Shown here: piece after piece, positions 43,315-53,689 of the stretch
How positions within the stretch are numbered: the first letter of the stretch is position 1
Layout: each line of letters starts with the position of its first letter
Assembly (NCBI GenBank): GCA_034226945.1
Contig: CP120455.1
Location: 248,001-312,000 of the forward strand
Length of the DNA: 64,000 bases
Direction of reading: 5' to 3'
Origin: Picochlorum sp. SENEW3
Taxonomy: Eukaryota
The notes under the pieces: generated by a model
What the model was told of the DNA's origin: nothing
Database searches by the model: none
The model's input: the letters and a program-made list of their open reading frames with translations, nothing else
Made by a program: the position numbers and the translations under genes

Positions 43315-44265
43315 TATAGTACTCTTCTATTTGATATGTCTTTAACTACACCAAGATGATGGGAAATTCGTGCATCTATTGAGCAGGACTGACTTGCAAT
43401 TGGTACATACGAATCGCAACCTTTCCTGCATATATCTGCCGATAAAGGGCAGTCCGCTGTGATTCTATTGAATTTTAATTTAATTAGGAAGATTATTGAG
43501 GCAGGTATTCTGGTTTCATGGACCATCGGCTTGTTTCGATGACTTCAGGCTGGACCGCTTGTGTTTACTGCAGGAAGCAAGAAGAACTCTGGGACTCTCT
43601 CATTCTATGCCGTGCATGTGGGCCCAGAATCAGAGAGCATGGTGATTGATTGATTTGTGCTTATATTTGATCACACGCGCGCGTGTGTGTGCCATATTGT
43701 ATGGATCTGTGATTGTGCATCTTGGCAGCTTGCCCAAGGATGAGACTACATCATTAGGATGATGAGCATTACTACTGGTTGACTTCTAGAATAGCTGCAT
43801 ACCTGGTTATAGGTTGTTCAAATACAGTAGAACGGTGTGGTCACGTTCGAACATGCCCCGCGGCGTGTGAAATGCCCAAAAGGAGCAGCCAGCATGTTGA
43901 TACTGCCTCATATTGCCAGTGTTGGACCAGGCGATGATTTGTCACATCATTCTCTTCCTGCTCTCTTTGAGTCATTTTCTAACAGTAGTGGTTGTGGAGC
44001 GCTCGATTTTTGGGGCGGAGATGACGGCGTATCAACGAGTGTCAATTCAGTAGTGGATTCGAATGTGCCCACGTAATCAAGGCCTTGCAAGGCACGGTGA
44101 AGCGCGGCATATGTCGCAGCGCCCTACATAATCCCGGATTATGGAGTCCATTCAGCATGTATTTTTTTCTACTACACAGATGCAATATTGATTTAAAATC
44201 GCATACGATAAAGAATTAATCTTTACAGATTTTGCAAAATCCCGGGAAATTTGTGAAACCGAATC

Positions 44266-45195
44266 ATGTCACTCTTAAGAGTGCCCAGAAGCTTCTGGGC
44301 GCTCGGACTAGTACTGTCGTTGACACCATTCGTTCGTTCTGAATGCTGCCTGGATAAAGATGTTGCTTTCTCTGGAACGAAAGTCATTCAAATGATTCAG
44401 GATGGTGACAGCTACTGGCGTCCTTTGTACGATAGAATGTGTCAAGGCTATCAAGTTTGTCCAGCGTCAGACTTTCCAAAGGGTTGTCAAAGGTATGACT
44501 CCGGGGAGGTGGAGAAAGATGGAATATCATACTGTAAAGGATTTTGTGATTCCATAACACCAGCAGATAATCCAGCTGAACTACTAACAACAGATGAAAT
44601 ACTAATTCTCTGCAAACCCTATATCTGTCTGCTGCCAGGGGAAACATCTGCGACCCAACCAGTAAATACAGCTTTCTGTCCTTCTAAATTTTTCTCTGGG
44701 GTCTACTGTAACAATCTTGAGGAGAGAGTCGGAAGTTATTGCTCTAGGGGCGAGTGCAATATGTTTGGGTGTAATTGCGACGGTGGTTGCATTGAGAGAT
44801 CCGGGAGAAAATTATCAGAGGTCACTGGTAATAAAACAACGAGTGAGGAAGGCGGCGTCGTCGGGAAATGTCAGCAAGCTATGATCGATAAATTCAATAC
44901 CTACTCGTTGACAGGGAGTCAGATCCGTGAGTATTTTGATTGTTTGGACTCTAACACCAACAATCGCCTGGATGCAGCCGATGAGGCACACAACTATGTG
45001 TTGAATCTTACCGGTGGATCGGAGAGATTGGCGGCTATGGATAGTGACGGAAGCGGTATGATAGATGCTTCTGAATTCGATTCTGATTTATCCGATGGTG
45101 TCCCAATGGAGACGGGCGCAGCATTGATCAGCACGTGCACCATGTTCCATCTCGTGCTCCTTGGTCTTGTGATTGCTGTTGTTCTCCCTTTCTGA
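44266..45195 (+). CDS. Secreted Cys-rich Diedel-like protein with EF-hand(s) and a C-terminal hydrophobic (GPI/TM) tail
   Basis: Signal peptide then 'ECC'; 'YCSRGECNMFGCNCDGGC'; EF loop DSDGSGMIDASE; hydrophobic C-terminus; intronless. Confidence 0.7.
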   Translation: MSLLRVPRSFWALGLVLSLTPFVRSECCLDKDVAFSGTKVIQMIQDGDSYWRPLYDRMCQGYQVCPASDFPKGCQRYDSGEVEKDGISYCKGFCDSITPADNPAELLTTDEILILCKPYICLLPGETSATQPVNTAFCPSKFFSGVYCNNLEERVGSYCSRGECNMFGCNCDGGCIERSGRKLSEVTGNKTTSEEGGVVGKCQQAMIDKFNTYSLTGSQIREYFDCLDSNTNNRLDAADEAHNYVLNLTGGSERLAAMDSDGSGMIDASEFDSDLSDGVPMETGAALISTCTMFHLVLLGLVIAVVLPF

Positions 45196-46042: not shown

Positions 46043-47636
46043 ATGCTGTACATTACATATGACGATTCGCCGCAATGCTTTGGCAGAGCATGGTGGTGGT
46101 TCAATGTGCCAAAACGAGTTGCACCATGGATATACTTTGCGCTCTTTTCTGCTCTGGCCATTGTATCCTATGTTGTGCGTGACTACTCATCGCAAGGGGC
46201 TCTGGCAGTGCTTCGAATTTCCATGGGTAATGTTCTCTTTTTCTCTCTCATGACTCTAATTTGCTTGGGTGTGTCTCGAGAAGATGACGATCATTACTAT
46301 GGTCTCAATTTTGATAGAAGGGTCTTCCATACTGGCATGTGGCCCTATAAACTAGGCATCTGGGCACTCTTGGTTGGGACTGCATTCTTGTATCCAGAAA
46401 ACGTCTTTATTGTGTATCAATACATAGCATGGGCTTTAGCTATATTATTTGTAGTCGCGCAGACTGTGATATTTATCGATTTCGTGTACGGAGTGAATGA
46501 ATACATGTTGGAGAAGGATTCATGTGTCTGGAATGCTCTTCTTGTTGCAATCACTGCCTTGTTCATTGCTGTCGCTCTGGGAGGATTGCTGGCATTGTAT
46601 TACTTTTTCGTACCAGAGTCGTCGTGTTCCATGAATATTGCATTCATCACATCAACGATTGGACTGTTTTTGGTGTACAGCTTGTTGTCCATCTCTGATA
46701 TTCGGCCAGACTATGCTGGATTGTTGGCGTCTTCCATCGTTTTTGCTCTCTGTGCATTCTACACGTGGGGCGCATTGAATAGGTATGTTATTGAGTTTTG
46801 AAACGGCGTGGGAGGGTGCCATGCACAATGCCAGGAGGAGTGAATGCCTAGCGCTATGCTTGTGGGGGCCCAGAGTAAACCCTGGGAGTGCACCCCACTG
46901 GCCTCTAAAGATTGGATTAATAGCAAGTCCCCCGATGGGGGACCTGAAGCTATTAAACTTCAGAGAACAGAAACTACACTTGATCTTAGCCAAAAGGCCG
47001 AGAAAGGTATGCTTGTAGGAGGGGTGCCGATCAGATTTTATACGACACCATGGGCTTTTGGAGTCTGTGATTATTATGGGCCACCACTCTTAAAGGCATT
47101 CTGCATGCTCCTCCAGGAGGAGTCCTCCTCTCGCTCGCCCGTGATTATACACATCGCCTTCTATCCCTCTACATATCATCAACTAACTATACATGTGATG
47201 TACATGCAGTCAACCAAGTAGCGAATGCACCAGAGATGATGGCAATGAAGAGGACACATCAGCAGCTGAGAAAGCACTTAGGATTCTCTCCTTCATCGTT
47301 GCCATGATTTCCATGATGATTGGTGCCCTAAATACAGCTCGGTCGAGTGAAAGTTTTAGCTTGAATAGCGACTCTTTATTCTTTGACGCAAAGAATGGCG
47401 CATTTTACAGCATTGGGTTTTTCTACACAATCTATGTGCTCGCTTCAGCCTATGTGCCCATGATTTTAATAGGATGGGATGTAGGCACTACAACGTCTGG
47501 TAATGAAGAGTTCACTCTAGGGAAGAGTTACGCAGCAGCTTGGGCCAGAATGGCAGCCAGCTGGTTCTGTGGGCTCTTGTATTGTTGGAGCCTTGTTGCA
47601 CACAAAGTCCTTGCTCGATGGCGACAGTTTGAGTGA
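46043..47636 (+). CDS. Serinc/TDE (serine incorporator) family membrane protein; intron 46783-47209; true start uncertain
   Basis: 'VLRISMG...FF', 'FHTGMWPYK', 'Q.VIFIDF', 'GLLASS', 'LASAYVPMILIGW', 'W.RMAASW....LY.WSLVA'; the intron restores the frame (AG|T CAA CCA). Confidence 0.85.
46822..47010 (-). ncRNA. U2: U2 spliceosomal snRNA (variant), nested antisense in the Serinc intron
   Basis: Minus strand begins ATACCTTTCTCGGCCTTTTGGCTAAGATCAAGTGTAGTTTCTGTTC (U2 5' end); stems IIa (CTGAAG/CTTCAG), IIb (GTCCCC/GGGGAC), IIc complement (TTAATAGC/GCTATTAA), III and IV all fold; ~189 nt. Confidence 0.95.
47036..47082 (-). promoter_or_regulatory. snRNA promoter: TATA box plus USE-like element for U2
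   Basis: TATAAAA at 47042-47036 (about -30) and GGCCCATAAT at 47082-47073 (about -70) upstream of the U2 5' end. Confidence 0.6.
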
Positions 47637-52606: not shown

Positions 52607-53689
52607 TCATGAACTTTCTGTATTCTCTAGTTCATCTATTTCTTTTTTTATCGAACCAATCATAGCTTCTAACTCTTTGACCGTGCTCAATTGGACTTGC
52701 AGTTCGTCCTCCATGGCTTTCAACCGAACCTTCTTTACTGCAATCGATTCTTGCATTGCGCGATTTCGAACCCCTCTGCCCTCCCGCACATCACCTCTTT
52801 TCAGAGCCAACCGCTTTTCTAATGATCCACTCCGCAGTTCAAAGCCACAACATCCTGCTCCTACCCACATTGACTCACCCTGTGTCACATGACCATTGTT
52901 CCGATACACAACAGACTGATGGTGTTGTTTCACACGAGAAGAACCACACTGCCTGGTATCATCATTCTCACCATTGTCTTCATAGAACGACACAAAAAGC
53001 ATTCTCTCCACACGCCGCAAACGACGTGTGCAATCCTGAGAATTATGACGATCATTCCTGTGTGTCAATCCTCCAGATGGGCAGACTGTACCATTGCCAA
53101 CTGCTTCATTCTTTTGCTGCTTCTGCCGTCCCATCAAACTGACGTTTTTATTACTTTTCATTCTTTTTACAGCCTTGTGGCTCTTCTCAGAGCCACTCCG
53201 TGCCAATAAAGATGCCCTCAGTGGCAGCCTACCATGGAGAGCATAGTGCTCGAGCGCCAGCTCAAGCTTCTTCCTGCCACCAACGATGCTTTGGAGTCGT
53301 CCCAGGTCATGACTGCCCATACCACGCACATGAGCAAGATCCTTTACAATATTACCTGTAATAAACTTTTCGTAGTACTCAAGACACCCATGATATTCCA
53401 AAAACAATTTCAAAGCCCTTGACCCAGACACCATTTTCTTCTCGGACACCTTTTCAGATCCATACAATCGACAGCATTCCTTGACGTGTTTCATCCGCAG
53501 CAAAAAGTTGAGCTCCTCAAGATTCTGCAAACAAACGCCACAGAAAACCAGGTTTGAGCACTCTGCGTCTTTTCCCTCTTTGTTCTTTGCAACAAGGACA
53601 GGCTTGTCTTCCCCAGTCATATCGATAACAACCGCATGCTCCGTCCCATTCCTTGGAGCACGATTCTCATCATCGTCGATATGTATCAT
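52607..53689 (-). CDS. Hypothetical protein with a UBZ-like Zn finger, SAM-like domain and C-terminal coiled coil
   Basis: 'CGVCLQNL...RMKHVKEC'; 'FLEYHGCLEYYEKF...DL..L...GGRKKLELAL'. Confidence 0.5.
   Translation of the reverse strand: MIHIDDDENRAPRNGTEHAVVIDMTGEDKPVLVAKNKEGKDAECSNLVFCGVCLQNLEELNFLLRMKHVKECCRLYGSEKVSEKKMVSGSRALKLFLEYHGCLEYYEKFITGNIVKDLAHVRGMGSHDLGRLQSIVGGRKKLELALEHYALHGRLPLRASLLARSGSEKSHKAVKRMKSNKNVSLMGRQKQQKNEAVGNGTVCPSGGLTHRNDRHNSQDCTRRLRRVERMLFVSFYEDNGENDDTRQCGSSRVKQHHQSVVYRNNGHVTQGESMWVGAGCCGFELRSGSLEKRLALKRGDVREGRGVRNRAMQESIAVKKVRLKAMEDELQVQLSTVKELEAMIGSIKKEIDELENTESS

Follow-up and report, generated by a model that had tools for sequence, protein, structure and literature searches.

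The branch-point recognition sequence of U2 snRNA, GUAGUA, is treated as invariant, and natural departures from it have been described in very few organisms. According to a survey from 2026, GUAGUA is strictly retained in all of the eukaryotes examined there except two sponges (PMC13685798). The sponge cases, Amphimedon and Geodia, are infrequent examples of a naturally altered box in eukaryotes that are normal in other respects. A further case is provided by Giardia lamblia, in which the U2 snRNA contains GUGUAGUU and pairs with the AACUAACAC of the introns (Hudson et al. 2012, PMC3510501). The last position of the Giardia box is U, giving GUAGUU; the organism is described as having few introns, a strictly conserved AACUAACAC, and an snRNA that is otherwise highly divergent (PMC3510501). 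Here, we describe a GUAGUU box in a U2 gene of the green alga Picochlorum, which belongs to another kingdom than the sponges. We found no report in the literature of a GUAGUU variant of U2 in green algae, and Giardia is the sole published case that we found.

The box also takes part in an internal structure of U2, the branchpoint-interacting stem-loop, whose register has been worked out for the human RNA: G25 opens the stem, pairs or apposed bases include 25/45, U27/U43, and A30/C40, and G31 and U32 pair beside the loop (PMC13019295). In the same account, three flipped-out bases of the loop act as a toehold that pairs with intron positions -2 to -4, and splicing is boosted by a Watson-Crick first invading pair. 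When the loop-proximal pairs are missing, branch sites with poor complementarity lose their handicap (PMC13019295). A review adds that the ATPase activity of Prp5 is less needed when the stem-loop carries destabilizing mutations (PMC11482624).

The Picochlorum gene lies within a 64-kb stretch of DNA (the window, here the whole stretch that was analyzed), which has a G+C content of 45.9%, long open frames, and few introns. The gene occupies 46816..47010 on the minus strand, as supported by the Rfam match, the predicted fold, and identity to a relative described below, and would yield a full-length U2 of 195 nt. A cmscan search aligned it to the entire RF00004 model (positions 1-192 of 192) at 138.6 bits, far above the gathering score of 46, with an E value of 3.5e-28. 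The predicted fold stands well apart from that of shuffled sequences (z = -5.5), and stem-loops I, IIa, IIb, III, and IV all align to the model along with the Sm-site region, with two non-standard pairs flagged. The likeness to canonical U2 extends to the U6-pairing 5' end and to a promoter of the snRNA type, while the differences consist of the GUAGUU box, a C inside the U run of the Sm site, and an antisense position within an intron of a protein gene. The Sm-site-like stretch, AUCUUUAG (nt 99-106; 46905..46912, minus strand), falls in the part of the Rfam alignment that holds the Sm site; besides the C within its U run it has an A before the G, and it is identical in the relative.

The box itself is at nt 34-39 of the RNA (46972..46977, minus strand; AACTAC on the plus strand), in a region that reads ...AAGUGUAGUUUCUGUUC.... 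Five of its letters agree with the six of GUAGUA and the last is U. In the cmscan alignment, this A-to-U change at nt 39 (window position 46972) is the sole mismatch to the upper-case, highly conserved consensus letters across model positions 1-47. The original prediction, which had read the box as GUAGUU with the change at 46972, was correct in both letters and coordinates. Membership in RF00004 stands by score, GUAGUA being a near-invariant feature that lies outside the Rfam threshold. From the evidence considered below, we would assign a probability of about 0.6 to the reading that this is a working Picochlorum U2 gene, probably the principal or sole one, with its own promoter, in which GUAGUU has become fixed at the level of the genus and is tolerated, and that the match of the box to an AACTAAC in the surrounding intron is coincidental.

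The intron in question belongs to a SERINC/TMS1 gene on the plus strand. It spans 46783..47209 (427 nt, GT-AG, GTATGT...CAG) and interrupts the gene in phase 2, as deduced from the open reading frames and from P0001, a transcriptome-derived protein. P0001 is labelled as coming from the trebouxiophyte Picochlorum oklahomense (taxid 249345), a green alga, and its match to the host gene identifies the organism as Picochlorum. The exon 5' of the intron (46043..46782, plus strand) is 100% identical to P0001 over 246 aa and matches PF03348, and an Atlas search with this upstream exon likewise returned Serinc; the last exon (47210..47636, plus strand) matches Pfam Serinc with an E value of 8.5e-16. 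P0001 spans the splice join exactly (...YTWGALN-S-QPSSE..., reading ...YTWGALNSQPSSE...), and since it reproduces the predicted join, the intron at 46783-47209 is real. U2 had been placed within this host intron from the start, and the location is right, but the strand is opposite to that of the host gene, so that the gene is nested in the intron rather than processed from it. The 3' end of U2 comes within just 33 nt of the host 5' splice site, and U2 and its promoter are together nested antisense in this last SERINC intron.

The promoter has a recognizable architecture. A TATA box, TATAAAA, is found at -32..-26 from the U2 start (47036..47042, minus strand), and an upstream sequence element (USE), GGTGGCCCATAA, lies at about -76..-64 (47074..47086, minus strand), with the core CCCATAA at -70..-64. 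This core agrees with the published green-algal USE consensus, which is given as ACCCATAA for Auxenochlorella and CCCRTAA for Ostreococcus (Fajkus et al. 2021, Table 1, PMC8287931). The gene thus has the layout of an snRNA-type promoter, with a USE near -70 and a TATA box near -30, and this arrangement is the one expected of an independently transcribed snRNA gene rather than of an intron-processed RNA.

Could the variant base be an error, or the gene a relic? A metagenome contig of 1286 nt (L001), found with a 22-base pattern taken from the 3' domain of U2, which is lineage-specific, carries the same locus in synteny and stems from a related species; over 921 nt, in an alignment that reaches into the downstream sequence, its SERINC exon has 86.5% identity. 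The U2 on this contig shares 192 of 195 positions (98.5%), scores 138.5 bits with RF00004, and again carries GUAGUU. All three differences fall at unpaired positions, namely nt 77 in the loop of IIb and nt 150 and 151 in the linker before stem-loop IV. Outside of U2 the two sequences have drifted apart, so that in the 80 nt upstream of the gene 50 of the 74 positions that align are matches, and in the remaining intron 51 of 107. The USE block matches in full (12 of 12 positions), in an intron that is otherwise barely alignable around it, and the contig has a TATA-like TATATTA at the TATA position, within a conserved block.

A third sequence comes from another source. P0002, with 88% protein identity, was called as a gene whose frame continues through the intron and over the U2 on the opposite strand. 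In its peptide ...REQKLHL..., the K codon falls over 46971-46973, where a canonical box would encode I, and the K in place of I implies that the variant U recurs at the central base of this codon. The P0002 peptide in the U2 3' domain differs from the window and also from the metagenome contig. A sequencing error or a private allele at 46972 is thus rejected, the U being present in the contig and implied in P0002. More broadly, an artifact of sequencing or assembly, or a dead U2 pseudogene, is extremely improbable: the same base recurs in two further sequences that differ from one another and come from other sources, the gene is 98.5% conserved although its flanks are not, the promoter blocks are conserved, and all of the stems are intact, with just the two non-standard pairs noted above. 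These comparisons support fixation of GUAGUU across the genus, at that scale, with the window, the contig, and P0002 being close kin of shared ancestry that should be counted as a single evolutionary event or a few.

The antisense nesting of U2 in the SERINC intron is likewise kept in the contig (positions 1-400) and in P0002, and there are hints in the sequences that it is older than the genus. The tails of more distant SERINC gene calls, at 62% identity, bear a weak likeness to the 3' end of the antisense U2, as in the read-through tail of P0005 (GCRAQC..SESLAPCM); these calls end before the box.

A conserved gene can still be a minor one. Many eukaryotes are reported to have several U2 genes with sequence variants (PMC8457000), and the variant gene might be a specialized paralog that is kept beside one or more canonical GUAGUA genes elsewhere in the Picochlorum genome. 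The metagenome scan returned one contig alone and is therefore silent on other loci. Against such a paralog, this copy has a promoter that is intact and conserved, purifying selection on it is strong, and it is the sole U2 within 64 kb: a scan of the window with RF00004 detected no second U2, even at E values up to 0.5. The genome is also compact, with 11-14 million letters of contigs in its sequencing runs. Of 24 runs listed, 20 contain part of the stretch and 14 at least half of its words; six are RNA runs with shares of 0.14-0.29, which could stem from the exons as well as from U2 and are not counted as evidence. Searches beyond the window, which count as weak negatives, revealed no second Picochlorum-like locus in the gene calls or in other contig collections. 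When the antisense peptide of the 3' domain was compared with gene calls, no further locus of this kind appeared at similar length, and among longer calls only P0002 did (one of seven candidates). The 22-nt pattern from the 3' domain matched one metagenome contig, the one described above, and none in the genome_contigs and viral_contigs collections. We consider a specialized paralog possible but doubtful.

If the gene is indeed the main or only U2, the next question is whether the introns have changed with it. The last base of the box pairs with the first position of the branch-site heptamer, intron position -5, as in Giardia (PMC3510501); this geometry, which was assumed when the variant was first noticed, is right. 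In Giardia, GUGUAGUU of U2 pairs with a conserved intron sequence (PMC3510501), and a comparable history in Picochlorum would involve a lineage shift to A (or to a purine) at -5, with GUAGUU restoring full pairing. The host intron does carry AACTAAC at 47181..47187 (plus strand), a candidate branch site whose branch A and the 3' splice site are 23 nt apart; from the end of the heptamer to the final base of the intron is 22 nt, just as the original prediction had it. The orthologous region of the metagenome contig, CAACTTAC, keeps six of the seven heptamer letters at the aligned place, including the first A. This similarity would fit the idea of co-evolution, but by itself it shows positional conservation and not co-variation, to judge from the aligned letters.

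The other introns of the window argue otherwise. Introns were predicted by joining open frames, with codon-usage log-odds on both sides, a G at +5, and a YAG acceptor preceded at 8-48 nt by a CTRAY motif as the requirements. A strict setting gave 31 candidates and 16 distinct branch motifs; under a relaxed one the numbers rose to 84 and 29. The predictions are heuristic, with the host intron as the one that is verified by a transcript, and a sample of 16 is compatible with a modest bias. In the strict set, position -5 is G in five motifs, C in five, A in four, and T in two; in the relaxed set, A occurs eight times and T, G, and C seven times each. For comparison, the base at -5 across all 385 occurrences of NNCTRAY in the window is A in 103, T in 105, G in 89, and C in 88. 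The branch-point logo proposed in the original prediction, when built on the window introns, therefore has no enrichment of A at the first heptamer position (4/16 strict and 8/29 relaxed, against 103/385 in the background). Position -4 is as degenerate as -5 (A in four motifs of the strict set, G in four, T in five, and C in three), and the branch sites of the window are simply CTRAY with free flanks. Most of the strict-set motifs are CTGAY (12 of 16). Over both strands of the window, CTGAC occurs 110 times, CTAAC 22 times, and ACTAAC seven times.

The purines taken together give a superficially better case for co-evolution, as A or G stands at -5 in nine of the 16 predicted sites and T in two, but nine of 16 is again the background share (192/385). 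The longer motif fares no better: the seven copies of ACTAAC, rare in 128 kb of sequence counting both strands, are preceded by A in only two, with C in two, T in two, and G in one. The predicted introns of the window do not share a branch site with A at -5, as they would in a system of the Giardia type, and the Picochlorum case differs from Giardia in that U2 is otherwise orthodox, the branch sites are degenerate, and there is no preference for A. Co-evolution of U2 and the branch sites accordingly appears quite unlikely. The idea of a lineage-wide change survives in part, since U is found at nt 39 in three related sequences, on the scale of the genus, while the predicted branch sites of the window show no shift to A. 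Given the absence of A enrichment at -5 among the 16 predicted sites, the correspondence between GUAGUU and AACTAAC in the host intron is probably due to chance. That caveat had been attached to the match when it was first proposed, and with A before ACTAAC in two of seven cases it has become the better reading.

We return to a working U2 gene in which GUAGUU is tolerated, and to how a U at this position might be accommodated. On the intron side, nt 39 would pair with -5, a position that seems to be unconstrained in Picochlorum, where CTRAY is all that the sites have in common; GUAGUU may be tolerated because its partner is free in this way. A U at nt 39 should pair with an A, or wobble with a G, at -5, in place of the U that a canonical A would favor. 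Among the 16 predicted sites, nine have a base at -5 that U39 can pair with, and a canonical A39 could pair with two; both counts equal the background composition, and show permissiveness and not selection. Tolerance alone is not the full explanation, however, because GUAGUA is kept in organisms with degenerate branch sites, at least as these are described in the 2026 survey (PMC13685798).

On the snRNA side, shifting the human register by +1 would place the stem-loop, as known from other eukaryotes, at nt 26-46 (46965..46985, minus strand). The pairing of U32 with A38 that follows from the human register (PMC13019295) would then correspond to U33 and nt 39 of the Picochlorum RNA. The original prediction had stated that the changed A also pairs in the branchpoint-interacting stem-loop; the human register agrees, with U33 as the partner (PMC13019295). 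U33 itself is unchanged in the Picochlorum U2, and there is no compensating change for A39U. The substitution would thus put a U33/U39 apposition where the closing U33-A39 pair is expected, leaving the loop wider. By analogy with human and yeast work, we infer that losing the closing pair in the free snRNP should ease opening of the stem and lessen the dependence of branch-site choice on complementarity. Computed folding is marginal for the stem-loop: nt 21-49 have a local folding energy of -0.4 kcal/mol, and 184 of 200 shuffled sequences fold at least as well.

The closest experimental parallels are the human U2 mutants M6 (G31U) and M7 (U32A), in which loop-proximal pairs are broken (PMC13019295). 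A39U would break the same closing pair from the opposite strand of the stem. The human mutants are laboratory constructs, described as acting in an orthogonal reporter and with lowered U2 levels, while the Picochlorum allele is natural and conserved. Unlike M6 and M7, A39U would also alter the base that is the first to invade the intron by pairing (PMC13019295). It is about an even bet that the GUAGUU box is that of the only functional U2 of Picochlorum, altered without any matching change in the introns, with the closing pair absent and a promiscuous U as the first invading base.

The interest of this natural variant of a known RNA is moderate, and lies mainly in its use as a test of the reasons for the conservation of GUAGUA. 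An alga that can be cultured, has a compact genome, and has fixed the U would amount to a natural experiment, one that could separate pairing with introns from snRNP structure and proofreading as causes of that conservation. Should the GUAGUU gene be the sole functional copy, Picochlorum would join Giardia and the two sponges among the very few eukaryotes with a changed box. Branch-site proofreading, which involves Prp5/DDX46, HTATSF1, and SF3B1, would then be relaxed or rewired in a streamlined genome, and the toehold model could be tested on the alga in a natural setting. Should there be canonical copies at other places in the genome, the gene is an ordinary variant snRNA gene of little consequence.

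Several minor features of the window deserve mention. At 53174-53218 on the plus strand, the histone 3' UTR stem-loop model (RF00032) matches below its threshold, with 21.3 bits where 34 are required and an E value of 0.26. SERINC is followed by an ER-retention-receptor gene on the minus strand. Just upstream of SERINC, an open reading frame at 44257-45195 (plus strand) matches the Pfam family Diedel with an E value of 1.6e-9 and 38.6 bits against a cutoff of 21.3. This domain is named for an insect cytokine and is unexpected in a green alga; the same frame also has weak matches to EF-hands.
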